32,000 nt of DNA, taken from contig OZ246420.1 of assembly GCA_965231145.1 (NCBI GenBank), positions 270,001-302,000 on the forward strand. Reading direction: 5' to 3'. Both the position numbers and the translations under genes were made by a program. The first letter of the stretch is position 1. Each line of letters starts with the position of its first letter. Below are positions 1 to 32,000 of the stretch, piece after piece. This DNA comes from Candidatus Saccharimonadota bacterium (GTDB lineage: Bacteria > Patescibacteriota > Gracilibacteria > Absconditabacterales > Absconditicoccaceae). Below the pieces are notes generated by a model. That model was not told the DNA's origin, made no database searches, and saw nothing but the letters and a program-made list of their open reading frames with translations.

Positions 1-1
1 G

Positions 2-2650
2 TTAAATCTCAATGGTACTGCCAATACAAGTGTAGTGACGATACAGAACACTCTGCCAGCAAGCTATACAAAAGCTGCGTGGGTAAAATTTGGTACAACC
101 AATAATGGCTCATATAGTATTTTATCAAATGGAACAACACCTTCTTCAAGTCCAGATTTTTTTTGGGTCTCCACTGGCACATATGGATGATCAGCTATCC
201 TGGGTCTCAAGGCTGGTCCTATAACGGCTGGTAATAATGCAGTGTGGAGTACAGGAGCATTTCCTACAAATACTTGGACGCATGTCGCAGTTACTTTCGA
301 TGGTTCTACTAAACAGTACAGACTCTATCAAAGTGGTGTGTTAGTCGGCCTGGCTACCGGTACTTCTTCGCATGCAAGTACTGCTCAGGCTATTGGAGCT
401 TATGCGACTACTCCTTCTGCAAATACCTTTAATTGGACAGGACAGTTAGACGATGTTCAGTTGTGGGATAGTGTATTAACAGAGGCTCAGATAGGAGAGG
501 TTATGAATCAAAATAATGGCGATGGTGTCACTCCTGCTGTTCCTGATTTCCCTACATCACTAGAAGCTTTTGCATACGATGCCAATGCCGTTTATCTTAC
601 TTGGACTGGGGTGGGAGCTACACCAGTAGTAACAGACTATCAGATAGAGTATAAGATAAACACAGGTTCTACTTGGAACGTATTTTCTGATTCGGTGAGT
701 ACAAGTACGACAGGGCTTGTGACGTGATTGATCAACAATCTTGTCTATGATTTCAGAGTGTCGGCTATCAATGCTAGCGGAACGTGACTTCCAAGCACTG
801 TAGTGTCGTGAACTGCAGTACCCTTACCGGAGCCACAATTTCTTCTTCGTTTTGAAGACACATATGACGATGTTTCGTCTCATGCAAATCACGGTACTGC
901 TACAGGAGCAATAGCAATAGTTACTGATGGAATCCGTGGCAAGGTAGCTCGTTTTATTGGTTCTATAGGTAATTATGTGACTGTTAATGTTCCCTTGGGA
1001 ACGACAGGATTTACCAAGGCGGCATGGATATATATTCCAGTTGGTACAACTATGAGTGCTCGTAATATTATCTCGAATAGCCCGTATGGAGGAAGTAACT
1101 CCAGCTTTCTTTGGGTAGATAGTTCAAAATTACAAGTTGGTCATTTCTCAGGAGCCGCGGCTCCGATCTTTGCTGCTGACCCTGCTAATATGACTTCGGG
1201 ATCCTGGGCGCATGTTGCTGTAACTTATCAGCCAGCATTGAAAAAATATATGCTTTATAGAAATGGAGCGCTTGTTGCCAGTGGCTATTCTATTCAAAAT
1301 CCAAATCCAAGTACAGGAACTATTATCTGAGCATATAATACAACCGCTGTTACATTTTCTGGATTTATGGATGATGTTGAAATGTGGAATAGCGCATTAA
1401 CTCCTGCTCAGATTCAATTAGTCTATGAGGGTAATACGTGAGTTCCGGTAGGCGTACCAGTTGCTCCTGCTAATTTTACTGGTACTACAGCAAGTAGTAA
1501 TAAAGCTACGTTAATCTGGTCGTGAGTGTCAGCTATTTTACCGGTAACTGACTATCAAATAGAGTATAAAATCAGTACCTGATCAACGTGGACGGTCTTT
1601 TCTGATGGAGTAAATACAGGTACAAGTGTCGTTGTTACAGGTCTGACGACCAATCTCTCATATGATTTTAGAGTGGCAGCGGTCAATTCTGCTGGTACTG
1701 GAGCAGTGACAAATGTTGTATCTCTCTCGCCAATTGTTGTTTCTGTGCCTCAGCCTCAATTTCTCCTGGGATTTGAAGGAAATTATGAAGATATGTCTAT
1801 CAATAGAAACAATGGAATAGCGACATGAACGCTTCCCATTATTACCGATGGCACTCGTGGGAAAGTAGTCAATATCAATGGTGTTGTAGGTAATTATGTT
1901 TGATTAAATGCCTCTCTCAATGTTTCGGGATTTACCAAAGCTGCATGGGTATATGTGGTGCCTGGTACGAATGTGGCTGCGCGTAATATATTGTCCAATG
2001 GATCCTACGGAGGAAGTAGCTCCAATTTTCTTGTCTTAGATGCGGGGGTACTGAAGGTAGGTCACTTTTCATGAGCTTCTATTGCATATTATGCGTCAGA
2101 CTCAGTAGCTTTTGGTTCATGACAATGGATACATGTAGCTACTACTTATAATTCAACTACGAAAAAATATATGCTCTATAGAAATGGAGCGCTTATTGCG
2201 AGTGGAACTGCCGTGACTGATCCTTTTGCAAGTACAGGAACTACTGTCGGAGCCTTTAATATAACAGCTGTAACATGGTCTGGATATGTGGATAATGCAG
2301 AAATGTGGGATAGTACTCTTACTCCAACTCAAGTACAGGCTGTGTATGAAGGTAATCTATGAGTGCCCGAAGATGTGCCATATGTGCCGTTAAATTTCTA
2401 TTCTCCTTCGGTAAGTACAGGAGTTGTAAATCTTATATGGTCTTGAGTTACATCTCTATTACCGGTGACTGACTATCAAATAGAGTATAAAATCAGCACC
2501 TGATCAACGTGGACAGTCTTTTCTGATGGAGTAAGTGCCAATACGACATGAGCTGTCACATGATTGATCGATAACCTTTCTTATGATTTTAGAGTGGCTG
2601 CGGTCAACTCTGCATGAACAGGTAGCTATTCAACTGTCGCTACTGCTGCG
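2..2650 (+). repeat. Three tandem coding modules of about 920 nt (about 307 aa), each LamG-like lectin + FN3; the first is truncated by the window edge.
   Basis: PQFLLRFEDTYDD at about 833 and PQFLLGFEGNYED at about 1754 are 921 nt apart. Near-identical DNA ccggt[a/g]actgactatcaaatagagtataaaatcag[t/c]acctgatcaacgtggac occurs at 1541 and 2461. Confidence 0.8.
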
Positions 2651-5600
2651 CCATGATTGTTCATTTTTTATCATATTCTTTCTAATGGTCAGAGTATTTC
2701 AGTGGGATATAACTCGACTCCTGCTCTTTCTTTGAGACAACCATATAACAATCTTGCGTTATGAGGAGGAGATCCTTTTTCGTCGTGATGACTGTTGTGA
2801 CCGCTCATAGAGTCAGGAGTAGAAAGTCCATCTGCTGGATTGGCAAACGCTTTAAGAGCGTATAGCTGAACGTTATCTCGCCCGATAATTATAGGATTGC
2901 ATGGTTTATGAGCGACATATTATTCTGATATAAAAAAGTGAACAGCGCAATATGCGAAAGGTATGGCACAGGCAGCACTGAGTAAGTCTCTTGTAGAAGC
3001 CGCGTGAGGAGTCTATCGTCCTCTTGGTGTGACGATTGAGCATGGAGAGTTTGATGCTCGGGCCTGAAATTTTATGCTGTATGAATCATATTTGGTAGAG
3101 TGGCAAAGAGATTATCAATTTGATATAAACGCACTGATGGGAACAACGGGGGTTGTTTTTCCAATGTTCTTAGATCAGGAACAATCTTCTCGAACATGAT
3201 GAGTTGCTGTAGCGCAGCTTAATGCACATAGAAATAATCCAGGAAAAATATTTCTCGTAGGTCCGAAATATCAATATTCATATGGTAGTGATAATTTGCA
3301 TCTTACTAATACGTGATCGAAATTTCTCGGCGAAATGCTAGCGAAGGTTATGTATAAGGTGGCGATACAGTGACAAACATGGAATCCGCTTATGCCTACT
3401 TCAGTCATAAGAACATGAGGTAATGCTATCCTCGTGAGTTTTAATATCCCAGTTGGAACACTCAATATCGATACGTGATCGGTAGCAGCACGTCAAAATT
3501 ATGGATTTGAATACTATCAGAGCGGAGGTACAGCTACTACAATTAGTGGAGTAAGGCTTTTGAGTTGAAATACTATGGTAGAAATAACGTTGAGTGGGGG
3601 ATTCGATGGAACTGGCCAAAAACTGCGCTATGCGTGGACGTGCTGATTTCCTGTTGTTACAGGTCAATGGGGTCATTGTGCGAATGCAAGCTCATGACTT
3701 TTTGTCGGTGGTAACATTCGTGATAGTGATTCGAGTATTTCTCCATCAGTAGATGGAACGGGACTGCCTTTATATAACTGGCTCGTCACTTTTGATGAAA
3801 GTATCATCACTCCTAGTGTTCCAAATGCGCCTACAAATGTCACAGCAGTTGCGAGTAGCTGACAAGCTATCATTTCATTTAGCTGATCGACCAATAGTGG
3901 TGGTGCAGCTATCACTGAGTATGTAGTTGTTTCCTCTCCATGATCTATTACATTTACGGGAACAGGAAGTCCTATTACGGTAACATGACTGACGAACTGA
4001 GTGAGCTATACGTTCGCAGTAGCAGCGAAGAATTATGTGGGAACAGGAACCTTCAGTAGTGCGTCAAATCCTGTAGTGCCTGCAACAATACCAACCGCAC
4101 CGACGAACGTCGCGGCGACAGCAAGCAGCTGACAAGCAGTGGTGGAATTCAGCGGCTCATCAAGTAGTTGATGGTCTACTATTTTGTATTATATAGCAAC
4201 CTCATCACCGTGAAATATAAGCTTCACCGGAACATGAAGTCCGATCACGGTAACATGATTGACGAACGGAGTCTCATATACCTTCACTGTAGAGGCATAC
4301 AATGCAATAGGAACGTGAGAAATAAGTAGTCCATCAAATGCGGTAGTTCCAGCGACAGTGCCAAATGCGCCGATCAACGTCGCGGCGACAGCAAGTAGCT
4401 GACAAGCAGTGGTAGCATTTAGCGGTTCGACTAATAGTGGTTGATCAGAGATTTTGTATTATGTGGCAACATCAACTCCGTGAAACATATCATTTACGGG
4501 GACTGGAAGTCCCATCACGGTAACGTGACTGACCAATGGAGTGAGTTATACATTCACAGTAGCAGCGGTTAATGCTATTGGTGCCGGAGCAACAGGATTA
4601 TCAAATGCTGTTATTCCTGCAACAGTACCAGGTGCGCCAACAGCTGTAAGTGCAACATCAAGTAGTGGTCAGGCGATTGTCTCATTTACCGCTCCGGCAA
4701 ATAATGGCTGAACTGGAATACTCTATTATATAGCAACCTCATCACCGTGAAATATAAGCTTCACCGGAACATGAAGTCCGATCGCGGTAACGTGATTGAC
4801 GAACGGAGTGAGTTATACATTTACAGTAGAAGCGTATAACGCGGTATGAACAGGAGCGGCAAGTAGCGCATCAAACGCAGTGATACCAGCAACGGTGCCA
4901 ACAGCACCGACGAATGCAACAGCAGTAGCATGAAGCGGACAAGCTATTATTTCATTCAGCTGATCTACCAATAGTGGGGGCTCACAGATTCTTTATTACA
5001 TCGTTACTTCATCACCAGGAAGCATCTCGCTTACGGGAAGTGAAAGCCCGATAACTATTACAGGTTTGACCAATGGCGTGAGTTATACATTTACAGTAAT
5101 AGCGGTCAATGCTATAGGAACATCATCAGCAAGTAGTGCCTCAAATGCAGTAGTTCCTGTGACACTTCCGGGTGCGCCAACAGGGGTGAATGCAACATGA
5201 GGAAATGCACAAGCTACTATTTCATTTACTCCGCCAGCAAGTAATGGAGGCACTGGTATAGTAGAATATATCGTCACATCAAATCCGTGAAACATTATAT
5301 TTACGGGGACTGAAAGTCCCATCACGGTAACGTGATTGACCAATGGAGTGAGTTATACATTTACTGTAGTAGCAAGAAATAGAGTAGGTTCGTGAGATGC
5401 AAGCGCAGTATCAAATGCTGTTATTCCTGCGACTGTCGCAAATGCACCGACGAATGTGGCAGCGACATCGAGCAGCTGACAAGCTATTGTGTCGTTTAGC
5501 TGATCGACTGATAGCGGAGGATCTGCCATCTTGTATTACATTGTAACATCAAGCACAGGAAATATTGTTGTAACATGAGCAGATAGTCCTATTACAGTCG

Positions 5601-8209
5601 CGGGATTGACGAATGGAGTTACATATGCGTTCACTGTAAGTGCTTACAATGCAGTAGGAACAGGAACAGCAAGTAGTGCTTCAAATGACGTCATGCCTAT
5701 TACGGTGCCAACAGCTCCGATCAATGTCTCCGCGACATGAGGTAATCAGCAGGCGACGATCAGATTTACTTGATCGATAAATAACGGTGGAACCTGAATC
5801 TTGTATTATGTGGCAACATCAAACCCAGGAAACATATCATTTACCGGAACATGAAGTCCGATCACGGTAACGTGATTGACTAATGGAGTGAGCTATACAT
5901 TTACCGTCGCTGCAATAAATGGAGCGGGTACGGGAGTATTGAGCAGCTCATCAAATGCTGTAATTCCAGCAACAGTAGCAAACGCACCAACCAATATCAT
6001 AGCAACAGCAAGTAGCTGACAGGCGGTTGTGTCCTTTAGTGGATCGAGTGATGATGGATGATCGACAATCCTTTATTACGTAGCGACATCAAATCCAGGA
6101 AACATTAGTTTTACTGGTACATGAACTCCAATAATTATAGAATGATTGACCAATTGAGTGTCATATACGTTTACGGTAGCTGCAAGAAATGCAGTTGGAA
6201 CCGGAGCGGCGAGTGCTGCGTCAAGCAGCGTGACACCAGTAACGATGCCATGAGTACCATCAAACATCCAGGGAGCAGGAACGCTGGGGGAAGCAATATT
6301 TGATTTTGATGCACCAGTGTATAGCGGAGGATCTGCGTTACTGTATTATACGATTAGATCAAGCACATGACAGCTAGCAAAAACTGGAGTAAATAGTCCA
6401 ATGACACTAACATGACTCACCAATGGAGTAACATATACATTCTTTATCGCAGCAGTAAATGCGCAGTGAGAAGGAACAAGCGGGGCAGTAACATTTACTG
6501 TCACAACTCCAACCACTATTCCGAGTGAGCCTACGAATATCACAGCGATAGCATGAAGTTGATCAGCATTGCTCAGTTTCAGCACCCCGACTGATAATGG
6601 AGGATTACTTATTGATTATTACGCTATTAGATCATCTACAGGTGCTCTCATAAAGACAGGAGCAAATAGCCCAATAAGGATGACATGATTACAGAATGGA
6701 ATAAGTTATGCATTTAGCGTCTCAGCAGTAAATGGAGAGTGAGAAGGTCCTAGCGACACAGTAACGATAGAGCCGATTGCTCTTATTGTAAATGGTGGTA
6801 GCATAAGTGTTATACTATGATCTACAAGTATGATAGCAAATTGGACGACAACTATTAGAGCTTCAACACAAATCCAGTATGGTATTACGACATGATATAC
6901 ATTGCAGAATACGGAAAGAGACGTATCAAATCGTGTGACCTTACATAGTGGGAATATCCAATGATTGCTTACCTGTACAAAGTATAACTACAGAATTATT
7001 GGTTCAGATGATGAAGGATATCGCTATACAGGAACAAATAGCACATTCACCACGCTAGGCTGCCCAAACAATGCGCCAATTCTCACACAAGAAGAAGAGA
7101 TTGTAGAGGTGCCAGTAGGATGAGTGTTTACTATGACATCAACATTGGGAACGACGTTAGAGCTTATTATCCCTGAGGACGTAGTACTTATCATACCAAC
7201 CCTTCTCTTCCAATGAAAACAATTGGAAGCAAGTACCGCAATTGGTTCTCTTGGCAAGCCATCTAGTGAACTTATTCAGGTGTCAGCGCTCTATGATCTC
7301 CAAGCATATAGTGGGGATACAGATCGCATGACGACCTTTGAAACAGGTCTTACGATGACGTTGAGTTATCGTGATCAGGATGTGAGTTGAGTAGATGAAA
7401 GTACATTAAAAATCTACAGTCATGATGGAACAAGCTGGTCAGAACTTGATAACTGTGTGGTAGATACAGTCAATAAGAACGTTACATGTAATACATCACA
7501 TTTCTCAGCATTCTCCATCTTTGGAGTAGCACTAGGAGTAACGCCAAGTTCTCCATCAGTATGAGGAGGTGGTGGATGAGTGTATCTGACGAAGGATGTG
7601 TGTCCAAACGGAGATTACTCACTGAGCTACTATGACAAGACATGTAGTAGTGTATGACTACCAAACATTGAACAATGAATACTTCGCCTCGCGTTGAACA
7701 AATGTACAGCACAAAATGGCGAAGAGCAGCAATCATACTGCTTCAACCGCGCGATCGGCTCTACAACGATGCCTACATTCATGCAGGCACGTTACTACGA
7801 TCAGATCACGAGAGCGCAGCTGTCGAAGATCATGGGAGAGTTTGCAAAGAATATACTCTGAAAGACTCCAGATAAGAGTAAGCAATGTACGTTTACAGGA
7901 GAAGATCCGGACGGATTAGCAGCATATATGATCCAGGCATGTCAGTTAGGACTGATGAATACAAGCAGACCAAATGACATACTGACAAGAGGAGAGTATA
8001 TGACGGTGCTTTCAAGAATGTTATATGGTAAAACGCATGAACAGACGAATGTGGAAAGTGAAGAACATCCATTCTACGAGTATCATATGGAGCAGTTGTA
8101 TAAGGAATGATTGATCAATAGAAAAGAGCCACTAGTGAAAGCACAAAGACTTGTACCATTCTTGACGCTCTACAGACTCGCACAGAAGCTAGAAAAAGAA
8201 TCAAGATAA
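2..8209 (+). CDS. Giant secreted/cell-surface adhesin-like protein, 5'-partial (2,735 aa in window, table 25). Architecture: 3x [LamG/concanavalin-like lectin + FN3], SASA/SGNH-like esterase-like domain, 11 tandem FN3, two further beta-sandwich domains, Gly linker, Cys motif, SLH-like C-terminal repeats.
   Basis: I hand-translated frame 2 codon by codon from 2 to 8209. There is no TAA or TAG until TAA at 8207-8209, and roughly 95 in-frame TGA. The four plus-strand frame-2 ORFs in the supplied track (242, 977, 2171, 7928) all lie in this frame. LamG_3-like motifs are present (LDDVQLWDSVLTEAQI, MDDVEMWNSALTPAQI, VDNAEMWDSTLTPTQV), as are FN3 motifs (TDYQIEYK...TGL..N..YDFRV.A.N..GTG). A terminator follows immediately. 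Confidence 0.85.
2650..3810 (+). other. Domain of the giant protein: putative SASA/DUF303-type (SGNH-like) carbohydrate O-acetylesterase fold.
   Basis: The ordered motifs resemble the SASA family: HILSNGQSISVGY (GQSN-like nucleophile block), GVTIEHGEFDA (QGEsD-like block) and YGSDNLHLTNTGSKFLGEMLA (D..H block). This is motif-level recognition only. Confidence 0.4.
3821..6780 (+). repeat. Array of 11 tandem FN3 domain repeats inside the giant gene, period 267-273 nt (about 90 aa).
   Basis: Repeat starts (P-x-A-P-T-N-V) are at 3821, 4091, 4361, 4628, 4898, 5168, 5438, 5708, 5978, 6248 and 6521. The consensus is ..AP.NV.AT.SSGQA.VSFSGS.NSGGS.ILYY.ATS.PGNISFTGTGSPITVTGLTNGVSYTFTV.A.NA.GTG..S..SN.V.P. 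Confidence 0.9.
7562..8209 (+). other. C-terminal anchoring module of the giant protein: GGGGGG linker, CPNGDYSLSYYDKTC motif, then SLH-like repeats.
   Basis: The translation reads ...HFSAFSIFGV..VGGGGGGVYLTKDVCPNGDYSLSYYDKTC...YCFNRAIGSTTMPTFMQARYYDQITRAQLSKIMGEFAKNILG...AAYMIQACQLGLMNTSRPNDILTRGEYMTVLSRMLYG...EQLYKEGLI. The (a..Gl......itR.e...m..r) pattern resembles S-layer-homology-type wall-binding repeats. Confidence 0.45.
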
Positions 8210-8212
8210 TAG

Positions 8213-8238
8213 AAAAACTCCCATCTAGGGAGTTTTTT
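8213..8238. terminator. Bidirectional rho-independent terminator shared by the convergent giant gene and the CHC2 gene.
   Basis: The sequence aaaaactccc-atcta-gggagtttttt forms a perfect stem (actccc/gggagt) flanked by an A-run and a T-run. The TAG stop of the minus-strand gene (8225-8227) lies in the loop. Confidence 0.8.
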
Positions 8239-8878
8239 CTTCAGAAGGAAAATTTAATTTGAGCTGATTAGGATTTGACGGCGGTGGAGGATCGAGTTGA
8301 TCTTGTCGGTATTTCCTTGTGTCTCCTAGTACCATAGAAAGAAATGTGGGTAGCGTATGAGATCGTCCACATCCAAAACATTTGACCATCCCCATGGTTT
8401 TACTGATACAACAGGAAGCTGTCTTCTCTTTGTGATGAGGACAAAGCACGTACAAGTTAGAATATGTTTCTCTGGCGATCGCATTTCATAGTCTCTCTCT
8501 CAGAAACGTGGTAATAAACTCACGGTCATAACCTGTACGCATGTCTCTATTGCGATTTTCCATGCTATGTAATCGCGCTCTCGTCTTCTTTTTTACTCCT
8601 TTATTTTTACCCGTAGGTTTTCTTCCCACACTCAAAGCTCTCGCAATTTCATTTTTTATCCTTAGTTGAATGATTTCTTTACTTCTTTTCACCCATGTAT
8701 CATACATTTCTTGATCAACCGATAAAGGAGCATCCTCATACAGAGTAAATGCGTCTTCCGGATTGTTTTTATATATCTCATATGAGTCAATTGCAGCTCT
8801 TTCCATGTTTTTTATAGAAAAACAGGAGGGCAAACCCTCCCGATAATCATAATGATCTAAAGAACATGTCTTCGTCAC
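8225..8878 (-). CDS. Hypothetical protein with a C-terminal CHC2 (DnaG-type) zinc finger, 217 aa. It is two track ORFs joined through TGA=Gly at 8486-8488.
   Basis: LCPHHKEKTASCCISKTMGMVKCFGCGRSH matches the primase zinc-finger pattern CP.H.EKT.S...(n)CFGCG. ORFs 8486..8878 and 8225..8455 are in the same frame and separated only by a TGA. The start (GTG at 8878 or an internal ATG) is uncertain. Confidence 0.6.
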
Positions 8879-8949: not shown

Positions 8950-8986
8950 ATTATATTGAGAATTTCGAATTCAACATTTCGAATTA
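8950..8986 (-). repeat. Stop-codon-abutting 37-nt conserved motif, copy A (after rlmN).
   Basis: The minus strand reads TAA TTCGAAAT GTTGAA TTCGAAAT TCTCAATATAAT. The TAA is the rlmN stop, and the terminator hairpin follows 6 nt later. Confidence 0.8.
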
Positions 8987-10165
8987 TTTTTTAAGTACTC
9001 TCAGGTTCTTCCCCGTCTCTTTAATCTCTTCACGATGTTCATATACTTTTTCATATCCCAGCTGACCGCAGGCACCTTTGACTCAGCGTCCGAGTGTATC
9101 TCTGACGGTTACCGTCACTCATCCTTTTTCAAGGATCTCTTTAAATCTCATGATCTGGTTTCTGCTTGGCTCTTCGAGGTCGATAGCGGGGTTTTCGTTG
9201 TATGGGATAAGATTGATATGTGAGTGAGCAGGTCTTGCTTTGAGGAGGTCTATGAGCTGATATGCGAGTTCTGGCTGGTCAGTCTTTCCCTTGATCATAA
9301 TGTACTCATAGAACACGCTCTTGCCTGTCTTTGTCGTATATTCATCGATCTGTGCCATGAGCTTGTCTAACGTGTACATCTTCGTGATCGTTGGGATAAG
9401 CTCGGAGCGGAGCTCCTGATTTGGTGCGTGGAGTGACAATGCAAGCATGACATCAAGATTGTCATCGATCATCTTTTGTATACCAGGAATAATTCCGCTG
9501 GTAGAGATGGTTACGTGACGACGTGAAAGTGAAAATCCGTTTTGGTCGAGGAGATAGTGTACAGTAGCTTTTACATTGTCATAGTTGAGGAGTGGTTCTC
9601 CCATACCCATGAAGACGATATTTCTGATCATGTACCATGAGTTGTCTTCTTTTTTGCCGAGCTTCTTTTTGAGGTATGCGTTTGCATAGATAACCTGTCC
9701 GATGATTGTTTGGACATCGAGGTTTTTGAGGAGTCCAAGTTTCCCCGTTACGCAGAAGATACATCCAACTGAACATCCTACTTGTGACGAGATACATAAG
9801 GTGAGACGGTTGAGTTTTTTACCGTCAACGAGGGTTGTGAACCCTTTCTTATATTCTTCTGATCCTTCGATAATTTCATGATAGTGGAACATAATTACTG
9901 ATTCGATCACGTTGCCGTCAGGGAGCTTGAAAAGAAACTTCGTTGTGTCTTCAGACTCCTGCATTTCCTGGAGCTCAAAAGGCACAATAGTGAAATTGTC
10001 CGACAATGAATCTCTCAGGTCTTTGCTGAGGGCAGTCATCTCTTGGAAATCAGTCACAGAGTTTTTAAAGATTTCGTGAAAAATCTGTTTCAGACGAAAT
10101 GGCTGAACCTTATGCAGAACTCTTCGTTCTTCTAATTTCTCTTTATCAAAAATAGAGGCTTTCAT
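8984..10165 (-). CDS. rlmN: 23S rRNA/tRNA adenine-C2 methyltransferase RlmN (radical SAM), 393 aa.
   Basis: Radical-SAM CxxxCxxC is present in GCSVGCIFCVTG, with MGMGEPLLNY also present. Reading through TGA at 9119 and 9083 recovers the conserved C-terminus VTVRDTLGRGVKGACGQLGYE (family pattern vR...G.di.AACGQL). The true stop is TAA at 8984-8986. Confidence 0.85.
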
Positions 10166-10205: not shown

Positions 10206-11231
10206 TTACAGCTGTTTTTCTATCTCTGCGTTGATCTCAGCAGCTAGGTCTTTGACTTGTGTATTGAAGTCCGGCTGCACAGGAACTTTAGCTCCGGCAG
10301 CGTACATGTGGCCGCCACCGTTGAAATGGAGTGCAACTTTCTGGACATCGATTCTTCTGCCGTCAGCCATATAGCCTGATCTGAACGATAATCCAACCTT
10401 GTCATCTGAACCTTTTCTGATGATAGCAATGACTGGTATAGCTTTCAAAGGTCTCAGATAACTAAAGATGATGGCATCTACTTCGTCTTTATCCATTCAT
10501 CGGCTTAGTATTTCTTCTGTGGTATATCGAGCATAGCAGATATGTTTTTCGCGAGTCATTCTCTGTATCATGAGCTTTGATACTTCGATAGAAGATCGGT
10601 CGCTGTTATTGAAAATATGTTGGATGACCCAATCTTTCTTTGCGCCGTATTCTATTAACCCGACTGCATTTTTCATCGTTCTGACAGAGTCTTTTTCATA
10701 CTGAAAGTTTCCCGTATCAGTCACGAGTCAGATATACCGGTAGGTCGCAATTGTCTCATCTATGAACTCTGGTCGACATTGTATACTTATCTCATAGAGG
10801 AGCTCGCAGCAACTCGAGCTGTCGACATCTTTCAGGAGAACCACCGGTTCAAAGACATCGTCTCCGATATGATGATCGATGATGAGTTTTTGTTTAGCAG
10901 TAAAATACTCCTCATGTCCTTCCGTGATCTTGTTGATGCGTCTATAGCCAGTAAAGTCTACAAATACTATCAGATCCCACGCATCGCTATAGTCAAACTC
11001 TGTACTAATTTTTTCTAGCCCCGGTATAAAATTATATGATCTTCATGGTTTTGTTGTAGTAAAATATCAGATTTCTTTCCCAAGTTTCTCTAGCAGTGTC
11101 CCAAATCCTAGCATCGAACCTATAGCATCACCATCAACGCTTTCGTGGCCAAAAATAGCGATCTTATTCGCATTGCTTATTTTCGTCTTACATTGATCGA
11201 GGAGTTCACTTGAAAACATGGTTATTTTCAT
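10206..11231 (-). CDS. nrnA: DHH/DHHA1 family phosphoesterase (NrnA-like oligoribonuclease / pAp phosphatase), about 341 aa.
   Basis: The family motifs are present: IAIFGHESVDGDAIGS, IIDHH, LVTDTGNFQY and DHHA1 GGGHMYAAGA. Four track ORF pieces share one frame and are joined by TGA at 10497, 10728, about 11043 and 11067. The start could be any of several ATGs at 11219-11261. Confidence 0.75.
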
Positions 11232-11305
11232 CAAATATAAAGAAGCAGCTAGATTATACATGATAACATTCTATATGCTATCATCTACTTGCTAACTGCT
11301 ATATG

Positions 11306-13780
11306 CTATTTGGTAATCAGTCCCTTTTCTACTAAGAACTTTGCAAGATCTCCGAAGAGTCTACCTGCAGTATATTCACCGTACTGATTTGTTCTTGGTC
11401 TACGAACGTGGATGACGACAATATATTTCAAATCATCCCTTGTAACCATGCCTACGAATGAACCATCTGTCCATCCATTTCCGTTCATATACTTTCCTTT
11501 GAAGGCAATCTGAGATGTTCCTGTTTTTCCACCTATCGTATAACCTGGGATCCCGTACATTTTTGTAAGCCCTCCATAGACGTCCTGAAAGAGAACTTCT
11601 CTGATTTTCTCACTCGTTTCTGGTTTGATAATCTGGTTTCCAACCTTAGGAGTATTCACAATATATTGCTTCGTCACGGGATCATAAATCTTATCTATGA
11701 TCGTTGGCTTTACGATATATCCGCCATTTACCAGCGCGCTATAACCTGCAGCAATCTGTACTGGTGTCGCAAGCATACCTTGTCCGAACGCATTATTATA
11801 GAATTGAGAAAGCGGGATGTTGTTTGGGCCTTCGATCTTACCCTGTGTTTCACCGGCAAGCTCTATACCTGTCTGCTTACCAAATCCAAACTTATCCATA
11901 AAGTTATAGAATACTTCTTTTCCTATTTTCTGAGCGATTCTTACCATTCCCACGTTACATGAGTAGACTACTGCATTTATCAGCGGATGAAATCCGCCGC
12001 AGTGTTTTTTGTCTGCGTTATTAATAAGCTGAACCACGCCATTTCCAATATCGAGTTTCAACTGATTGTTATCTTGGTAGTAGTCATAAAGACTTACTTC
12101 ATCGCTATCGAGACCAAAGGCCATCGTAAATGGTTTGATGATCGAACCTGGTTCGTATGGCTGCGCAATGTTTTTGTCGATAAATACCTGAGCTCCCATC
12201 TTATTTGCAGCGACATATTTTTGTAGTGATGGATCTTTTCTCTGGTCATATGTTGTCGGTATGATTTTTTCTCCCGAGAGGAAGAAGACTGGAATATCTC
12301 TATAGGTGTCGTCGTTTATAATAGTACTTTCAGTAAGGCTTAATGGCTTCAGTTTATATGCTTCCTGATAGTTGTTTGGATTAAAGGTTGGATAGTTCGC
12401 CGATGCTATGATCTTACCATTGTGAGGATCCATGATGATGGTAGATATTTCGTCAGCGTTGAATATCTTTGTATAGTATTCTTGTAGTTGCTCAAGCTTC
12501 CTCTGGATGAGAGGATCTATCGTAAGATAGACATCACGTCCATCGATAGGCTGTGTGATAGCAATATCATTTGATGCGATTTGTCCGAGGAGCGGCGTAG
12601 AAAGTCATTGTATTTCTCCTGCTTTTCCTTTGAGAAGCTCATCGAAATATTGTTCTATGCCATAGAGAGCATAGCCATCTTTTGCGTAAAACCCCAATAT
12701 GTTTGCTGCGAAGTGATTGTAAGGGTAGTATCTTGTTTCGTATTTTTCCAATCCAAGACCATGCAGTAGGGGAATGCCTTTAACGCAGTTTTCTCCTGCA
12801 TTTTCACACGTGTTTTTCACGTTATAGTTAGCATTGATGAGGTCATTGATCTTTTTCGCGAGCGTAGCATTGAGCCCATCAGCGAGCTTTACGTATCTGT
12901 TTTCCTGTTGGACAAATAAGTTAGAGATCTGTTTTTCTGAATATGCATAACTGTATTTCATGAGGATCGAGTTGATCTCTTTTTTCGCATTGACGACGTT
13001 GATTGCTTTAGGTGGTACGACATAGACGTAGTGTTTGCTTTCGATGCTTACGTATGGCAAATTCATCCCTGAGAGGTCTGCAAGAAACTGATCATTTTCA
13101 AAGTAACCGAGATAGTTTTTTTCCTTCACTCCAATGGAAATCTTATTGTCCAGGGTCGCTTTGATCATGTTCATGGCTTGATCTCCTGAGAAGGCATTGA
13201 TGATTTTCGTCCTTTCCTGGTCGATGATGCTATTTTCTTCGACGATCTGTTGCTGCATAAGATCAATTCCTGTTTGTGACCGATAGTTCTCTCCAATCTC
13301 TTGTGTATAGAAGACCGTCTTTGGAGCAGGGAGGATCTGTAGCTGAGCAAAGCGTTCAATGTTTTCTATACAACCAAGTTTATCTACATCTACTAGTCCA
13401 TTTTTTTCACACAGGTGCGCATAGATAATCGGAGAGAGGATATCTATAACTCTTGGTTTGTCCCAGACAAACTTCGGATCGATAAAGACGTTGTACATTT
13501 CCATGTTTTGGGTGAGAGCGATGGGTTTATTGCTTGCATCAGTAAGATAGATATTTCCTCTCTTCGCTTTGATGTTTGTTTTATTGAAATGCTGTGCAGT
13601 CATCACATCGCTATAGTTTTTCGCCTGTATGATCTGCAGATAGAATAGTCTGATGGTAAGTACAAGAAAAAGAAAAGAAAGGATCCATAAAAGCTGAGCT
13701 TCTCTGGTGATTTTTCTTTTACCAAGACCGAATTTTTCTAGTATCTTATGAGCGAGCTTATTTTTTTTCTCTAATAGCAT
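11306..13780 (-). CDS. Class B penicillin-binding protein (FtsI/PBP2-type peptidoglycan transpeptidase), 824 aa.
   Basis: An N-terminal TM helix (LLWILSFLFLVLTIRLFYL) and RGNIYLTD are present. The transpeptidase motifs are SIIK (SxxK), SCN (SxN) and KTGT. ORFs 12605..13780 and 11306..12433 are in frame and joined through TGA at 12605-12607 (…GEIQ-G-LSTPLLG…DVYLTIDPLIQ). Confidence 0.85.
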
Positions 13781-21333: not shown

Positions 21334-22584
21334 TTATAATTGCTGTACCGCGTGAATGAATTGATGTGCGCGGTCGAGGTAGTCTTTGAACATGTCAAAG
21401 CTGGCGCAGCCAGGGCTCATGAGAATCACATTGATATTATTATTCTTAGCGTACTCATAGGCAAGAGAAACAGCTTCTTCCATAGTTTTTGCATTGGTAT
21501 GTGCTATGCCTTGCTTCTTCGCGATCTCGGTAAATTGAGGAGCAGTAGTACCGATAAATACTCCATAGCCAAGAGTCTGCTTCATAAGATCTCCGAGTTT
21601 GCTGAAGTTATCTCCTTTGTCTGAGCCTCATGCAATAAGTACAATAGGCCCAGGGAAAGCTTCGAGTGCAACATTCAAAGCCTGTGAACTTGTTGCTTTG
21701 CTGTCATCATAGAACTTGATGCCAGATTTCTCAGCAATAAGCTGGATCCTATGATCGAGGGGCTTGATGCTGTTCATCGTCGCATGGATGATATCATCAG
21801 ATACCGAATGGATATCGCTGAGAACTGCTTTTGCTACAAGGTAGCATACTTCAAGATTCCCGGCGTTATGCTTGCCGACAAAGTGCGTATTGTCGAGTGG
21901 GTAGTCATTTCCATACATGGTGATAGGTATGGCATGAGTCAGATCGACATGGTGTTCATGGAGGATGTCCATGACACCAGGCGTTATGAACGCCTGTTTA
22001 TTGGTATGTTGTATGAGAAGATATTTTGTTGCTACATAGTCTGCCATGTCTGGATGCCAGTTGAGGTGGTCTGGCGAGAGATTTGTCCATACGCTGTAGT
22101 CAAAGCGCATATCTTTTAGTCCATAGAGGAGAAATGATGAAAGCTCCGTTACGATGATATGCTTTTTGTTCGTAAGCTCTTTATCGAGGATATGATTGAG
22201 CGTCGTTGCGATAGACTCATCGAAATTTCCGCTCAGCCAGAGATGATGATCGGGGAGGAGTCATTTGAGTAGGTTATACAATACGTGACAGGTTGTTGAT
22301 TTGCCATCGGTTCCCGTAACTCCGATAAATGACAGGTTATCTTTCCATGGCTGTTTCTCGAGAAGCTGGCCAATAAAATTGAGCTCTGAGATAGTCTTGT
22401 GGCCGTATTTTACATAGATATCGCTGTCGGGCTTTACCGCCTGGTGTACAATAATCTGATCGGCTGTATCAAATAGTTCTTCATCCCGAGCATTATAATC
22501 GATACTTTTTGACTCAATCTTAAAGTGTCTGAGTAGCTTCTGAAGTGGAACTCCGATTTTCCCTTGGCCAAAGATTGCGATCAT
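21334..22584 (-). CDS. murD: UDP-N-acetylmuramoylalanine--D-glutamate ligase MurD, 416 aa.
   Basis: GVTGTDGKSTT is the P-loop. DHLNWH, KHNAGN and LIA-G-GSDKGDNF are also present. Three track ORFs share one frame and are joined by TGA at 22261 and 21628. Confidence 0.85.
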
Positions 22585-23459: not shown

Positions 23460-23496
23460 ATTATATTGAGAATTTCGCATTTAGAATTTCGAACTA
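23460..23496 (-). repeat. Stop-codon-abutting 37-nt conserved motif, copy C (after gyrA).
   Basis: The minus strand reads TAG TTCGAAAT TCTAAA TGCGAAAT TCTCAATATAAT. The length and register match copies A and B, and the TAG is the gyrA stop. Confidence 0.75.
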
Positions 23497-26016
23497 TTCC
23501 TCGTCACTTTGAGCTTCTTCATCGGCTTTCTTTTCAGCCTTAGTTTCTGCTTTTCTTTCTTCTTTCCATGCGGTGTTTTCTGCTTTTTCTTCCCATGGTC
23601 TGTAGATCGTTTCGATAGTTCCTGTGACGATCTTTTCCATAGGAGTATCCGGCATATCGAGGAGTACCTTATCTGAGTGGATAGTCTTGAGTTCTCCTGT
23701 AGTGAGTTTAATTCTTACTGAACCTTCCACCATAGCGATACCACCGGTAATCTTATCTTTACCTTCGATCTCAGCTACCTGAACGATCTTTCCACCACGC
23801 TTACCAAACTGAGATTTGCCGAACTTGAGATCTTCAAGTGCTATCATCTTCGCAGCGTTAGTACCATTGATAAGGATAAATGGCTCGTTCTTATAGATGA
23901 ACATAGCCGCCGGTCCATCACTTTCGTCCTCCACAGAGATAGCTTTTACGCCTGCAGCAGTTTTACCCATAGGGCGACATTGCTCTTCAGGGAAGAGAGA
24001 AAGGTATCCTTTTTGTGACAGTACTCCAATCTTGTCCTGGTCTCTCACTGCTTCCACTGCGATGATCTTCTCTTTGTCCGCGAGGGTCATGACTGTTGTA
24101 GGGAATTTCTTGAATGAGAGTAACAGTTCTTTTTTAATTTTTTTGAGACTGTTCTGATTTGAAAGGAATACGAGCTCTTTGTAATCATGGAGCATAGAAC
24201 TACAGAAGATCACATTTCCCTTGAGATTCCATTGTTCTTTTGGATCAACGGCAGGGGATTTCATGTTATGAGAGCCGATGTCCTTGAGTCTTTGGATAAC
24301 AAGTTCTCCTTTGTCTGTGATGACGATCAATTTATCTTGGTTATGTGTGTAGACAAGTTCGATCGTATCTTCAGGAAGAACATTTACTCTTGACTGGTAG
24401 AGAATGCGGAACGAATGATCAGCGCCGATCCAGAGGATCACATCTTCTTTTTTAGCATCTTCCTGCTTGAGCAGCTCTTTCATGCTTCCTGAGAGATTTG
24501 CGGCCCCGCCGTCGCCAACAAGCTCTGTTCTTCTTTCATCGCCATACGTTTTCTTCATATATTTCATTTCATCCGTCACCACTTTATCGAGTTTCTTTGG
24601 ATCATTGATGATACCTTCAAGATATTCGATAAGCTTCTTTTTCTCATCCATTTCATCCAAGATCTTCTGGATTTCAAGACCCACGAGGGATTGGAGTCTC
24701 ATCTGGAGGATATATTCCGCTTGAACATCTGAGAACTCAAACTTCTTTCCCATAAGTTTATCCTTCGCTTCCTGCTTATCATTTGAATGTCTAATAGCAT
24801 GGATTACATCATCCAAGATATCAAGCGCACGCTTCAAACCTTCGAGGATGTGCATCCTGTCTTTTGCCTTTCCGAGCTGGAATACAGATCTTCTGTAAAC
24901 AACTTGTCTTCTGAAGTCAGTAAACTCAAGTAAGAGATCCTTGATGTTAAGGAGTCTTGGCTGCATACCTTTTTCTACGAGCGTTACATTATTGATGTTG
25001 AAATTTGTCTGTAGCTCTGTGTACTTAAAGATTTTTGTGAGCACCGCATTTGCATCAACTCCTTTTCTCAAAGTGATACTTACTCTCATTCTTACTCTGT
25101 TAGACTCATCACGGATGTCTGTAACACCATCGATCTTCTTGTCTACCACGAGTTCTCCGATCTTCGCTACAAGCGAAGATTTATTTACCTGGTAAGGTAT
25201 TTCATCTATAACGATAATTTTTCCGTTTTTCCCTTCTTCAATATGTGTTTTCCCTCTCACGGTAATACCACCTTTTCCTGTTTCGTATACTTTCTTGATG
25301 TTCTCTCTGTCATACATAAGACCTCCAGTAGGGAAGTCAGGACCTTTGATAATTTCCATGATATCATCTATCGTTGCATCTGGGTTATCCATCAGCAGCA
25401 AACACGCATCAATAACCTCAGTAAGATTATGTGGTGCCATATTTGTTGCCATACCTACAGCGATACCCATCGTACCATTACAGAGGTGATTTGGAAATTT
25501 CGTTGGCATCATGATCGGCTCCTGACGAGACTGATCATAATTTTCTCTCCAGTCTACTGTATCTTGATCGATATCTTCGATCATCTCTTCAGCAATCTTT
25601 GTCAGTCTCGCTTCCGTATATCTCATTGCAGCGGCGCCGTCTCCATCGATAGAACCATAGTTACCTTGTCCATCAACGAGGGGATACCTCAAAGAAAATG
25701 GTTGAGCAAGTCTTACCATAGCATCGTATACAGAGGAGTCTCCATGGGGATGGTACTTTGCCAGTACTTCACCGACTACTGCTGCAGACTTTCTATACTT
25801 AGCATTGTGCATAAGTCCGATGTCGTACATCGCGTAGAGGATACGTCTGATCACTGGTTTCATACCATCTCTTGTGTCTGGAAGTGCACGAGAAACGATA
25901 ACCGACATCGCATAGTCGATATATGACTGAGTGATTTCTTTTTCGATCGAATGAGGAGTATTGTTTTGTACTATCTCCACTGGTTCATTTTGTTCTTTTT
26001 CTTTCTTTTCAGCCAT
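23494..26016 (-). CDS. gyrA: DNA gyrase subunit A, 840 aa.
   Basis: This is an intact ORF. It carries [20 protein letters not shown] and the active-site [10 protein letters not shown], plus a C-terminal beta-pinwheel region and an acidic/lysine tail. It contains no in-frame TGA. Confidence 0.95.
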
Positions 26017-26091: not shown

Positions 26092-26207
26092 CTGGTAATT
26101 GCGATAAAATAATAGCTTATAAAAGCCATTTTTAGCGTTTTTCATTGTATGAAAAACTCTAGCAGCGGCGACAGAATTTTACTTGTTATGCTTATATTAT
26201 GAGATGG

Positions 26208-26398: not shown

Positions 26399-26409
26399 TT
26401 TTTTCTACG

Positions 26410-26433
26410 AAAAACTCGACCATAGGCCGAGCT
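26410..26433 (-). terminator. Rho-independent terminator after the acidic hypothetical gene.
   Basis: The minus strand reads gctcggcctatggtcgagtttttcg. Its sequence resembles the 14109-14132 hairpin (aagCTCGG...CCGAGttttt). Confidence 0.7.
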
Positions 26434-26459
26434 TGCATAATGTTATGGAGAATTGTATG

Positions 26460-27023: not shown

Positions 27024-27056
27024 AGTTGATGTACGTTATATGAGTGAAGATAAAAA

Positions 27057-27551: not shown

Positions 27552-27622
27552 CGTGGTTATGAACTAAATGGTGCGATACTCTGCAACTCATACTATCCAA
27601 TAGTAAAAAATTTGCAAGAGCA

Positions 27623-28765
27623 TTACATGAAGAACTCTTTGATGAATTCATAGATAATTCCTGCTCCAAATATGATAATAATAAGATATGAGAAAAATGT
27701 ATTATACGGGAGAATATGGGTCGATTTTTTATTGTGCTTTTTCTGAAGGATAAGATTCATGGATCCAACCATAACACAGATGAGACCCGTGAAAATAGCT
27801 CCTGAGAAGCCCAATGTGCCGACGAAGTCGCTCTCTATGTAGAGATATGCAATCAGTGGGAGCAGCACGACCGTGGTCCGGGCATCCATGCTGTGGAAGC
27901 GGAAAGATTTTTCGAGAGTTTCTTTAAGATGTTCTCCGATAATAAGATGAGGAGAAACAAGTGCGAGTATGCCGACAAGACCGCTGAGTTTCATGACCCA
28001 TGTTGGGAGAAATGCCTGTAGTCCTGAGAGCGCGTCGGGTGAGGTGGCAGCTCATGAGATGCCAACGATAGATCGTCACCAGAGGAGGACGATAGATATA
28101 CAGATGATTCAGCTCGTAATGATGACTCATGGAAGGCGTTTTTTCTCTGAGCCCATCATATCTTCAATGAGTGGAATAGTTGAAACGCCGTTCAGTGAAT
28201 AGATAAGAATACCGTAAGGAAGAAACCATTGGCTATGATCTATGACAGAGAAGTGACCTGGGCTTGTCAGCGAGAATCCATAGATGATAATAAAGAGCAA
28301 AGTACAAACGAAAATAGCAACAATAATTTTGTCATACTTCTTAATGCTGTTTATGCCATGGATGAGGAACGCACCGATGCAGAGTGAGTAGATAGCTGCA
28401 GTCGTTGCAGGATGGACAGAGTATTCAGGACCGATAAGTAAGTTAAGAAATCAACCGATGAGTGATGTATATGCAAATAGTGCAATGAAAAACTGCATGC
28501 ACGTGACAAAGAGTCCTGCAAATCAAAGTCTTCTTGGTAGCAGTTTTTTTATCATGCCAGCGAGAGGCATCTTGTCGGGCATGCTCAGTGACACCTCAGT
28601 TTGGAGTAAATTTAAGATGATAGTGATAGCCCCAATGATGAGGGTCCATATCGTTCACCGCATAACTCCTGCGTGTGCAAAAACATATGGTACGCCAAAA
28701 AGGCCCGCTCCAAGCGTGCCTCCTATGAGTGTCGCGATTCAGACAATTTGTTTTTTTGTTAACAT
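27623..28765 (-). CDS. Amino-acid permease-like multi-pass membrane transporter, 380 aa.
   Basis: I verified the codons one by one: eight in-frame TGA and no TAA or TAG. The N-terminus IATLIGGTLGAGLFGVPYVFA is typical of aromatic/amino-acid permease families, and hydrophobic segments occur throughout. The ATG lies 7 nt after the dnaE stop. Confidence 0.65.
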
Positions 28766-28772
28766 TGCGTGC

Positions 28773-31700
28773 TTATAGAATAGAACGAAGTCTTTCGATG
28801 CCCATCGGATTGAGCTGTCTTTCTATGGTCCCGATCGTTACTGTATGTTCGCCCGGATGATCCTTAATGATCTGCGCAAGAGTCTGGAGGAGAGATGGAT
28901 TGTCCGGTAAACTAAACTGCATTGGTCACATTGCCTCTTCTCCGCTAGCAGCTCCCGATGGAGTAGATTGAGCTTCACCGTTTCACATATCATTGTTTTC
29001 AGGATTGCCCGAATTGCTATCGTCCTGATCTGTTTCATCTTCATCTGTGAGTCCATCCGGAATCGTATCGGTATGCTCAATCTGAATAACTTCTCCTGTT
29101 TCTACATCTACCATTTCATCTTCCAGATCATTATTTAACGACAGGATGTTCATACCAAGTCTTGTTGTCTTCACTTCACTCACTGATTCATTGTTAAATT
29201 TGCCAGCTTTCTTCGCGTCTTCGGTAATTCTTTCAAGTGATGTCTTGACGATCTTACTGACTTTAAGCGACCTGTTTTTCCATCCCTCGATAATGAGTAT
29301 GTCAAATTTCTGTAGATCTAACGTCTCTTTCATAAATATTTCTATCTCATCAGAAAGGTCTTCGACCGAAATGAAGTATCATTTCTTTTTTGCTCTCTGG
29401 ATATTTTTGACATAACATAAGATCTTCACATTTCCAAAGGGTTGCTCTTTATCATAGTATTTGAACATACTGATAAGCGAAAAGCTTCCTTTGATGAATG
29501 GATATAAACCATCGAAAGGATGACCCGATACAAATGTTTTAAATACTTCATATTCCGTCAATAGTCTTTCCATCTTTGTGCTTTCTTCTGTCTTGGCGAG
29601 TTGCAGCGCGGGCTTTACTGAAGCCATGGCAAAGAGACTATTACTTGCGCTTTCCGATGAAGACATTTTTGTCCAGTCGATGATGCGCGCAATGTTATGG
29701 AGGATCGTTTTACGATCCATAAAACCGTTGAATGCACCAGCTTTTGCAAGTGACTCTATCGTTTTTTTATTGATGACGCCTGCACATCTCGTGAGAAAAT
29801 CTTCAAGTGACGTGTATGGTCCATTTTTGCTTCTTTCATTTTCGATCGTTTCTCCTACTTCGCTTCCGACTCCTTTTATACACTGAAATCATAGTCTGAT
29901 AGTGTCATCAATCGCAGCAACGTGAGTGAATGAATCATTGACATGAGGAGGAAGTACACGGTATCCTTGGAGCTGTAGTTCATTGATGAACTTGCTGAGC
30001 TTTTCCGTGTCTTCTTCTACCGATCTCAGGAGGGCAGCATTAAATTCGATAGGGTAATTTGCTTTCAAATATGCTGTCTGATACGAAAGCATTCCATAGG
30101 TCACTGAGTGCGACTTATTGAATGAGTAGAACGCAGCTGGTTCAATCATCTTCTCATAGACCCATCTTGAAGTCTCTTCTTTATAGTTTCTGAACGTCGC
30201 AGCTTTTTCGATAAACTGACCTTTAATCTGCTCGATAACCTCCTTAATTTTCTTACCGATACCGCGTCTGAGATTGTCCGCTTCTGCAAGTGAAAATCAT
30301 GCCATGGCTTGAACCAAGAACATGAGCTGCTCCTGATAGACGGCAATACCATAGGTGAGGCCAAGGATCGGATCAAGATCTTCTGTGAGTTTTCTTTGTT
30401 CTTCTAACGCGGTTTCTTCATCGTACTTTCCAATGAGCAGATCATAGAGTTCAGGGAGCATGTATTCAATTGGCTCTTTCCCATGCTTTCTGTCAATATA
30501 TCTTGGAATAAATTCCATAGGTCCTGGACGATACAGCGCACCCATCGCGATAATATCGTTTACGTCAGTTGGCTTTAGTTTTACCAAGAAATTTCTAATA
30601 CCATCTCATTCAAACTGAAATACTCATGATGTATCTCCTTTCTGTAACACTCTTTCAAAGGTGTTCTTATCGTCGAGCGCAGGCTCAAACACCATCGTAC
30701 GGAAATAATCTTCAAATAATTTCGGCAGCTTCTTGCCGGCTTTTGTATATTTTGCTTTCACGATCTTCATCGTGTTTTTAATAAGCGTCAGCGTTCTGAG
30801 GCCCAGGAAGTCCATCTTCAAAAGACCAATGTCTTCAAGGTCGTGTCATTCGTATTGAGTTACTAATTGTTTATGTACTTCTTCGCCTGCCTTCCCTTGT
30901 GGCTTTGGAGGATGCTGTACCGGCGCAAAGTGAGTGATGACGTCAGGTGCAATAATGATACCACATGCATGTACACCAGTTCCTCTTACCGTACCTTCGA
31001 GTTTGATCGCTTCGTCAAAAGTCTTCTTTAAGATAGGATCGTTGTCATACATGTTTTTGAGATCTTCCATCTGGTCGATAGACTCTTTGATGGTCTTTTG
31101 TGTAATGAGCGATGCGATGAAATTTGATCTGTCGAACGGTACGCCCATGGTTCTTGCAACGTCTTTAAACGCAGCACGTGCAGCCATGGTCATGTATGTT
31201 CCGATATGTGCAACTTTGTCTTTCCCGTATTTGTCTGCAACGTATTCTACTACCTTGTCTCTCTGTACGTCTTCGAAGTCGACGTCGATATCGGGCATAG
31301 ATACACGAGCAGGATTGAGAAATCTTTCGAAGAGGAGACCGTATGGAATAGGATCTACGTCGGTGATCCCTGTACAATATGCCATGAGAGAACCCGCAGC
31401 AGAACCACGACCTGGACCCACAGAAATATTGTTGTTCTTAGCCCGATTGATAAAGTCCTGTACGATAAGGAAGTATGTGTTATATCCCATTTCCTTTACC
31501 ACTTTGAGTTCATACTCTAAACGTTCGATATAACTTCCTATCGTTAGCTCGCCGTAAAATGTATTTGCATGTTTTTCAATAAACGTTTTTTTATTGTCAG
31601 TGTATGTTGCTCTTGTGAGTTCTCTGAGTTCTTCCGGTGTCGTTTCTGTCAGTTTTTTTACAAGCGTACCTGCAGAGGTAATTTCTACCATATCTAAAAG

Positions 31701-31787
31701 ATCTTGGTCTGACCAATGATTTTGTTGAAATCTTCTTCTCATGCCTGCGTAGGACAAATAACGCAGCTCAAATTCAAAAATATCCAT
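28773..31787 (-). CDS. dnaE: DNA polymerase III alpha subunit (DnaE), 1,004 aa. The ORF begins after the position of the PHP domain.
   Basis: Family motifs: YFLIVQDFINRAK, VGPGRGSAAGSLMAYCTGITDVDP, LLFERFLNPARVSMPDIDVDF, GVHACGIII, TQYE-G-HD..LLKMDFLGLRTL, TS-G-VFQFE-G-DG, AMA-G-FSLAEADNLRRGIGKK, FNKSHS and IRL-G-FQCIKGVG. Eight in-frame TGA all fall in one frame. TAG lies immediately upstream of the ATG at 31787, and the stop is TAA at 28773-28775. Confidence 0.9.
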
Positions 31788-31941
31788 CTATTCAACTTAA
31801 ATCTTAAGACTAAAACCTAAAAACTTTTATAGGTACTATCATTGATGAAAATTTCCTTAGAAAAGCTTTTAGTTTTAAAGTTTACGTTTTTAGTTCGTTA
31901 GAGCGTTTATAAAAAAATGAGAATGAAAATCTATCAATAAT

Positions 31942-31970
31942 AAAAAAATCCTCACCGATGCAGTGAGGAT
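31942..31970 (-). terminator. Rho-independent terminator of an upstream minus-strand gene that ends at the window edge.
   Basis: The minus strand reads atcctcactgcatcggtgaggattttttt (8-bp stem, T-run). Confidence 0.7.
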
Positions 31971-32000
31971 GTTGTATTGTTTGCTTAATAGATACTATGG

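Follow-up and report, generated by a model that had tools for sequence, protein, structure and literature searches.

Gene content and reading frames

The window analysed here is the whole of a 32,000-bp stretch (positions 270,001 to 302,000 of contig OZ246420.1, assembly GCA_965231145.1) with a guanine plus cytosine (GC) content of 41%, and the genetic code used by its genes is the subject of this report. With TGA read as sense, the gene set comprises 18 analysed genes and two further small ones; the 18 are backed by homology or synteny and bring the coding density to ~90% of the window. The stretch begins inside a giant surface-type protein (2..8209, plus strand), cut at its N-terminus by the window start, in which three Laminin_G_3 plus fn3 units are followed by an unassigned central region of ~370 aa, 11 more fn3 domains and a C-terminal region; its 2,735 codons include 96 in-frame TGA and end at a TAA stop. 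Pfam assignments on the minus strand beyond it identify a small protein with a DnaG-type CHC2 zinc ribbon (8225..8806; PF01807; one TGA, three CGA, stop TAG), the radical-SAM rRNA/tRNA methyltransferase RlmN (8984..10165; TGA at aa349 and aa361, CGA at aa14, stop TAA), an NrnA-like DHH/DHHA1 phosphoesterase (10206..11261; four TGA, four CGA and one CGG) and the transpeptidase penicillin-binding protein 2 (PBP2; 11306..13780; one TGA, stop TAG). A HisRS-Nudix hydrolase fusion (15343..16971; TGA at aa5, 195, 274, 359, 443 and 445, CGG at aa123, aa131 and aa438) and the replicative helicase DnaB (18188..19534; Pfam; TGA at aa19, 125 and 414, stop TAA) occupy the plus strand. The remaining housekeeping genes, all on the minus strand and assigned by Pfam, are MurD ligase (21334..22584; TGA at aa108 and aa319), DNA gyrase subunit A (GyrA; 23494..26016; no TGA and no CGA or CGG), a Trp/Tyr-type amino-acid permease (27623..28765; eight TGA, one CGA and two CGG) and the DNA polymerase III alpha subunit DnaE, here with no PHP domain (28773..31787; TGA at aa314, 388, 394, 497, 633, 803, 935 and 954, CGG at aa115).

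The longest stop-to-stop open reading frame (ORF) grows from 855 codons under the three standard stops to 2,735 codons with TAA and TAG as the sole stops, and no gain of this kind follows from making TAG (866 codons) or TAA (855 codons) sense. In-frame TGA occurs in 14 of the 18 genes, at 1 to 96 per gene and 140 in a total of 9,556 codons; TAA and TAG are by construction absent in frame, and off frame they occur at rates of 209 and 161 per 10,000, respectively. The genes end in TAA (13) or TAG (5) and never in TGA, in keeping with an earlier preliminary description of this DNA, which had named TAA and TAG as the only true stops. Alignments of orthologs from relatives extend to the final codon ahead of these stops, and no leftover stop function of TGA was seen at gene ends, where every ortholog alignment continues to TAA or TAG; at the C-terminal TGA of DnaE (aa954) the conserved sequence likewise continues downstream. 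Alignments to PDB homologues cross the TGA codons without frame shift in DnaE, DnaB, MurD, RlmN, HisRS, Nudix and DHH.

UGA as a glycine codon

The preliminary description had proposed that UGA is read as Gly, and four sequence tests agree with it: comparison with PDB homologues, Pfam substitution, fn3 paralogs, and interchange of TGA with GGN in three relatives. For the first, 22 TGA sites were each compared with two to three solved-structure homologues that use the standard code, giving 52 comparator residues. Gly makes up 19 of the 52 (~7% expected) and Cys one, and Trp, whose alignment with TGA the preliminary description had named as contrary evidence, is found opposite none. Every comparator has Gly at six of the sites, namely DnaE aa497 and aa633 (Gly in both Taq (Thermus aquaticus) and E. 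coli), RlmN aa349 (both PDB RlmN), HisRS aa274 and Nudix-box aa443 (three of three PDB comparators each) and DHH aa178 (in both PDB comparators, the Gly ahead of the DTG motif), and at least one comparator has Gly at five more. The five codons that the preliminary description had cited by coordinate are all in-frame TGA on the strand it gave, at 30297-99 (-) in DnaE, 21628-30 (-) in MurD, 19427-29 (+) in DnaB, 16162-64 (+) in HisRS and 16669-71 (+) in the Nudix box. Its DnaE, HisRS and Nudix-box examples coincide with Gly in all comparators; the DnaB comparators read A/A/S at aa19, S/S/E at aa125 and N/N/G at aa414, so that its DnaB example (aa414) has Gly in one of three and Asn in the others.

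For the second test, each TGA was replaced by one amino acid and the Pfam bit scores were summed, the models being derived almost wholly from standard-code sequences. A chimera of the housekeeping genes (27 TGA sites, 12 families) scores 1006.4 bits with Gly, 996.4 with Ser, 975.9 with Cys and 963.0 with Trp, and six fn3 repeats (26 TGA sites) score 162.7 with Gly, 159.4 with Asp, 158.1 with Asn, 149.7 with Ser, 143.4 with Ala, 139.6 with Thr, 123.6 with Cys and 102.6 with Trp, which puts Gly at the top of the four residues tried in the former set and of the eight in the latter. The third test draws on the giant protein, whose 14 fn3 copies have TGA and GGN in shared alignment columns (TGA/Gly 11/3, 4/10, 3/10, 2/9, 1/12 and 1/10). 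The 11/3 column is the T-G-L turn, a position at which the preliminary description had correctly placed TGA in many FN3 domains.

The fourth test, codon interchange between orthologs, is independent of any database's translation choice. Three relatives were used: a 936-kb contig of the metagenome-assembled genome (MAG) GCA_030429145.1 (loci L006 and L008; DnaE 78% identical) and the 64-kb JGI metagenome contig 3300078830 Ga0654416_0000093 (loci L009 and L010; DnaE 56% identical), both syntenic with the window, and the named SR1 genome RAAC1_SR1_1 (locus L007). Comparison with the two syntenic relatives gives 210 positions at which one sequence has TGA and the other does not; the partner codon is GGN at 140 of them, encodes Ser at 13 and Ala at 12, and never encodes Trp, Cys or Arg. 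In the comparison with RAAC1_SR1_1 it is GGN at 44 of 61 such positions. The MurD motif 'LIA-GG-SDKG' illustrates the exchange: for its Gly pair the window has TGA-GGC, and GCA_030429145.1 (L006) has GGT-TGA. A further 20 TGA positions are common to the window and its relatives (12 with GCA_030429145.1 and eight with the JGI contig, at DnaE identities of 56-78%), and sequence conservation persists downstream of them. Taken together, the tests support the assignment of UGA to Gly as firmly as sequence analysis permits and lead us to reject Trp, Cys or selenocysteine, and stop.

CGA and CGG as probable tryptophan codons

Absconditabacteria have been predicted with Codetta to read CGA and CGG as Trp in addition to UGA as Gly, a prediction whose authors stress the need for experimental confirmation (Shulgina & Eddy 2021, PMC8629427), and a preprint describing KACI recovered the same reassignments (10.64898/2026.04.02.715157). 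The window contains 15 CGA, 13 CGG and 83 TGG codons; at 15.7 and 13.6 per 10,000 codons CGA and CGG are rare, and together they would make up ~25% of the inferred Trp codons (28 of 111). Where CGA or CGG on either side is paired with a different codon in the comparison with the two syntenic relatives (n = 59), the partner is TGG in 34 cases, Leu in six, Tyr in four, Phe in three and Arg in three. TGG codons of the window also stand repeatedly opposite CGA of the relatives, as do window CGA codons opposite TGG, and AGR and CGY codons pair with Arg or Lys in roughly 85-95% of cases. Since this interchange evidence does not involve profile hidden Markov models, it provides independent support for the predicted reassignment.

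Individual sites point the same way. The CGG at DnaE aa115 (31443-45, -) lies opposite Trp in both Taq ('vqdyinW') and E. coli ('efiqW') and is TGG in GCA_030429145.1 (L006), and the CGG at Nudix aa438 (16654-56, +) occupies the Trp of the W-x-F-P-K-G motif in three of three Nudix structures, giving Trp in five of five PDB comparators over the two sites. The five CGA/CGG sites of the DHH protein lie opposite N/L, F/P, Y/K, H/F and G/D, and never opposite Arg. In Pfam substitution at 13 domain sites Trp is the best of the five residues tried (W 531.1, F 527.1, L 522.8, K 520.6 and R 519.0 bits). Judging from these alignments, CGA and CGG very probably encode Trp and not Arg in the source organism. 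It follows that NCBI translation table 25, which the preliminary description had applied throughout, is not the full code of the contig: its UGA to Gly assignment stands, but the behaviour of CGA and CGG as Trp had been missed, and 28 codons are mistranslated as Arg.

Lineage of the source

In searches with DnaE and PBP2, the best named matches come from Candidatus Absconditabacterales, Absconditicoccaceae or candidate division SR1 and share 45-55% identity; the closest two sequences overall reach 74-79%, and gene order is conserved with both the 936-kb MAG contig of GCA_030429145.1 and the JGI contig. By best matches, the placement of the source in the Absconditabacterales (SR1) lineage holds, as does the broader SR1/Gracilibacteria origin that had been deduced from the code, and the combined CGA and CGG signal points to the Absconditabacteria side of that pair. 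A search of genome contigs with GyrA returned distant Chloroflexota and Thermotogota GyrA only and no close relative, and no paper was found in the literature on ERR4405439, GCA_030429145 or 3300078830.

Weighing of the reading and its alternatives

We consider it highly likely that the window as a whole is an Absconditabacterales fragment in which UGA is Gly and CGA and CGG are very probably Trp. Several observations weigh against this reading. No standard-code comparator has Gly at 11 of the 22 TGA sites, so that the preliminary claim of a conserved Gly at TGA wherever the family is recognisable is borne out at about half of the sites and fails at the others; the TGA of 'FQFE-x-DG' in DnaE (aa394, 30606-08), offered as a conserved Gly, lies opposite Ser in both Taq and E. 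coli. In Pfam scoring Asp and Asn come within 3-5 bits of Gly at the fn3 TGA sites and Ser scores above Gly at those of the permease. For CGA and CGG, the profile evidence comprises 13 sites only, with Trp just 4 bits over Phe, Arg is found opposite these codons in two single PDB comparators (HisRS aa123 and RlmN aa14), and the GC content of 41%, which describes one window and not the genome, exceeds the 26-38% reported for clades with reassigned and very rare CGA and CGG (PMC8629427). GC is 40-41% in the closest relative and 30% at the locus of the named SR1 genome (L007); CGA and CGG are rare in the window, yet CGG use is above the reported range. With regard to decoding machinery, ARAGORN found no tRNA genes in the window, in L001 (a Logan contig described below) or in loci L006-L010, and the window has no release-factor genes. 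Lastly, support for this code in this organism comes from DNA sequence.

The alternative that survives best is table 25 without amendment, in which UGA is Gly, CGA and CGG remain Arg, and their pairing with TGG reflects true Arg-Trp substitutions, one nucleotide apart, at tolerant sites. It can draw on the rarity of the codons concerned (28), on the two Arg comparators just mentioned and on a Pfam margin of Trp over Arg of 12 bits only at 13 sites. We nevertheless regard it as improbable: 34 of 59 changes lead to TGG and three to Arg codons, while AGR and CGY keep to Arg and Lys as described above, CGG falls on an invariant Trp in both DnaE and Nudix, and Codetta arrived at the same reassignment for the clade independently (PMC8629427).

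Reading UGA as Trp (table 4, the code of Mycoplasmatales and certain insect endosymbionts) would invoke the commonest bacterial reassignment of this codon, and some pipelines do use table 4, one PBP homologue being labelled 'uncultured bacterium (gcode 4)'. It is nonetheless very unlikely here, with Trp opposite none of the 52 PDB comparator residues, no TGA-TGG pair among 210, and Trp scoring below Gly by 43 bits in the housekeeping set and 60 bits in the fn3 set. We give as little credence to an origin in a code-25 phage or mobile element and not in a cell. Phages of these candidate phyla radiation bacteria exist and can share the host code (PMC10746230), but the content is chromosomal housekeeping (GyrA, DnaE, DnaB, MurD, PBP2, HisRS and RlmN) and collinear with the 936-kb and 64-kb contigs; the fragment is chromosomal rather than phage. 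A standard code with TGA codons explained as pseudogene lesions, sequencing or assembly errors, selenocysteine or leaky read-through has nothing in its favour beyond the in-frame TGA itself and is of negligible probability, as all 140 interruptions are TGA with no TAA, TAG or frameshift among them, 20 TGA positions are common to relatives with conservation continuing downstream, Cys lies 30-39 bits under Gly and is found opposite a single comparator residue, 140 UGA codons are too many for selenocysteine and neither a selenocysteine insertion sequence (SECIS) nor another Rfam match occurs in the window, and sequencing error and pseudogenisation are excluded because an independent assembly (the Logan contig) is 100% identical across 7.7 kb and its gene calls are fragmented save for the TGA-free GyrA.

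Proposed decoding

Under the favoured explanation, the window would derive from the chromosome of an uncultured Absconditabacterales (SR1) bacterium in which UGA has been reassigned from stop to Gly and termination relies on UAA and UAG only. By analogy with characterised relatives, UGA would be decoded by a dedicated tRNA-Gly that combines the anticodon UCA with the Gly identity elements G1:C72, C2:G71, G3:C70 and U73, and release factor 2 (RF2, prfB) would have been lost; tRNA-UCA(Gly) and RF2 are the discriminating genes for the UGA to Gly code of Absconditabacteria and Gracilibacteria (PMC8629427). CGA and CGG may be read by tRNA(UCG) and tRNA(CCG) carrying Trp and not Arg identity elements (G73, no A20), as the clade literature suggests. 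An Rfam scan of the window matched no family.

Comparison with known codes

Translation of UGA as Gly was described for this clade in 2013, and the window belongs to the expected clade, so this part of the code is not new. Table 25, the code of Candidate Division SR1 and Gracilibacteria (Campbell et al. 2013 and Rinke et al. 2013, as cited in PMC8629427), resembles that of the window in having UGA as sense at Gly positions, UAA and UAG as sole stops, the right lineage and fragmented standard-code calls, but differs in keeping CGA and CGG as Arg. The Codetta-predicted Absconditabacteria code (PMC8629427) includes all three reassignments, with CGU, CGC and AGR remaining Arg, and both CGA and CGG are rare in the window and both pair with TGG; the window departs from it in GC content (41% versus 26-38%), in the ~25% share of CGA and CGG among inferred Trp codons, and in that the closest relative uses CGA and no CGG in the aligned genes. 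UGA to Gly was likewise deduced from conserved genes in a BD1-5/SN-2 bacterium, for which proteomics yielded 97 peptides unique to the Gly database versus three for Trp (Hanke et al. 2014, PMC4032931); that organism is of a different lineage, on the BD1-5/Gracilibacteria side, and its code is supported by peptides as well as by sequence. Table 4 (Mycoplasma/Spiroplasma) also represents a bacterial change of UGA from stop to sense and opens the ORFs equally well, but every test made on the window indicates Gly as the amino acid, and none Trp.

Reassignment of CGA and CGG to Trp is so far a computational prediction only. It is likely that the window uses a three-change code (UGA to Gly, CGA to Trp and CGG to Trp) that is covered by no official translation table, and that it does so at 41% GC.

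Uneven use of the reassigned codons

In the giant fn3/LamG protein 30.6% of Gly codons are TGA, compared with 9.8% in the remaining genes (Fisher p = 6e-13), with low values in GyrA (0 of 55) and PBP2 (1 of 63). The excess in the giant protein stems in part from a single TGA-bearing fn3 unit that has been amplified 11 to 14 times. Use also varies between close relatives: over the same aligned genes the TGA share of Gly codons is 8.6% in the window, 13.2% in GCA_030429145.1 and 30.3% in the JGI contig, and GCA_030429145.1 has 22 CGA and no CGG versus nine CGA and 10 CGG in the window. TGA sites are conserved less than GGN sites in comparison with the more distant relative (55% versus 76%, p = 0.01). 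If the three-change code is correct, the window and its relatives would offer a natural series in which to follow the rebound of reassigned codons once they have been captured. The window adds to codon-level support for the predicted CGA/CGG reassignment a view of uneven reassigned-codon use between genes and between close relatives.

Consequences for annotation

Under standard-code gene calling, 14 of the 18 genes are broken up, and any table 11 annotation of such DNA is fragmented. This is directly visible on the Logan contig (L001, run ERR4405439), which is 100% identical to window positions 21380-29105 and on which public standard-code calls split MurD into pieces of 160 aa and 68 aa and the permease region into 123 aa and 104 aa, leaving GyrA alone intact, as had been anticipated in the preliminary warning that standard-code annotation would be badly wrong. 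GyrA has no TGA, CGA or CGG and is therefore called intact under any code. Large collections accordingly misannotate contigs of this kind. Table 25 restores the ORFs yet puts Arg in place of Trp at 28 codons, a few of which are functionally conserved Trp positions in DnaE and Nudix.

Other genes and individual proteins

The remaining small or unassigned genes use the same code and lie at 14857-15252 (+), 17028-17525 (-), 17550-17966 (-), 19534-20361 (+), 20385-21236 (+, SLT-like), 22626-23390 (-), 26460-27023 (-) and 27057-27551 (-). Most are conserved and syntenic in GCA_030429145.1 (L006/L008) and the JGI contig (L009/L010), where TGA interchanges with GGN and CGA/CGG with TGG; the genes at 17028-17525 and 17550-17966 resemble lipoproteins. 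A small T4SS-pilin-like membrane protein (14171..14569, -; Pfam PF18895) adjoins PBP2, an arrangement conserved in L008 and L009, and RAAC1_SR1_1 (L007) has a T4SS_pilin gene near its PBP.

Two residues of conserved enzymes are replaced across the clade. The TGA at RlmN aa361 (9083-9085, -), which the preliminary description had taken as a conserved Gly in 'GR-x-VKGACGQL', in fact coincides with the Asp that is conserved in the G-x-D-I-x-A-A-C-G-Q-L motif; the codon is GGA or GGG in both syntenic relatives, and the Gly is therefore clade-specific. At HisRS aa131 (15733-15735, +) the Gly closing motif 2 is replaced by Trp, encoded by CGG in the window and TGG in both relatives, again a clade-specific replacement.

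HisRS runs into the Nudix hydrolase in frame with no stop between them (15343-16971, +), through the junction ...GEEREYAMVDCYG..., and in both syntenic relatives HisRS is unfused (430 and 419 aa), with no Nudix gene at the locus. Judging from these loci, the HisRS-Nudix fusion or stop loss is specific to the window's lineage. DnaE begins at position 7 of the Pfam DNA_pol3_alpha model without a PHP domain, and a PHP annotation is likewise absent in the best 120 DnaE homologues (876-1,105 aa). The closest relative has a separate 274-aa PHP-domain gene (L006 4593-5417) ~4.6 kb upstream of DnaE, and from the sequences compared this looks like a clade-wide split or a PHP-less DnaE.

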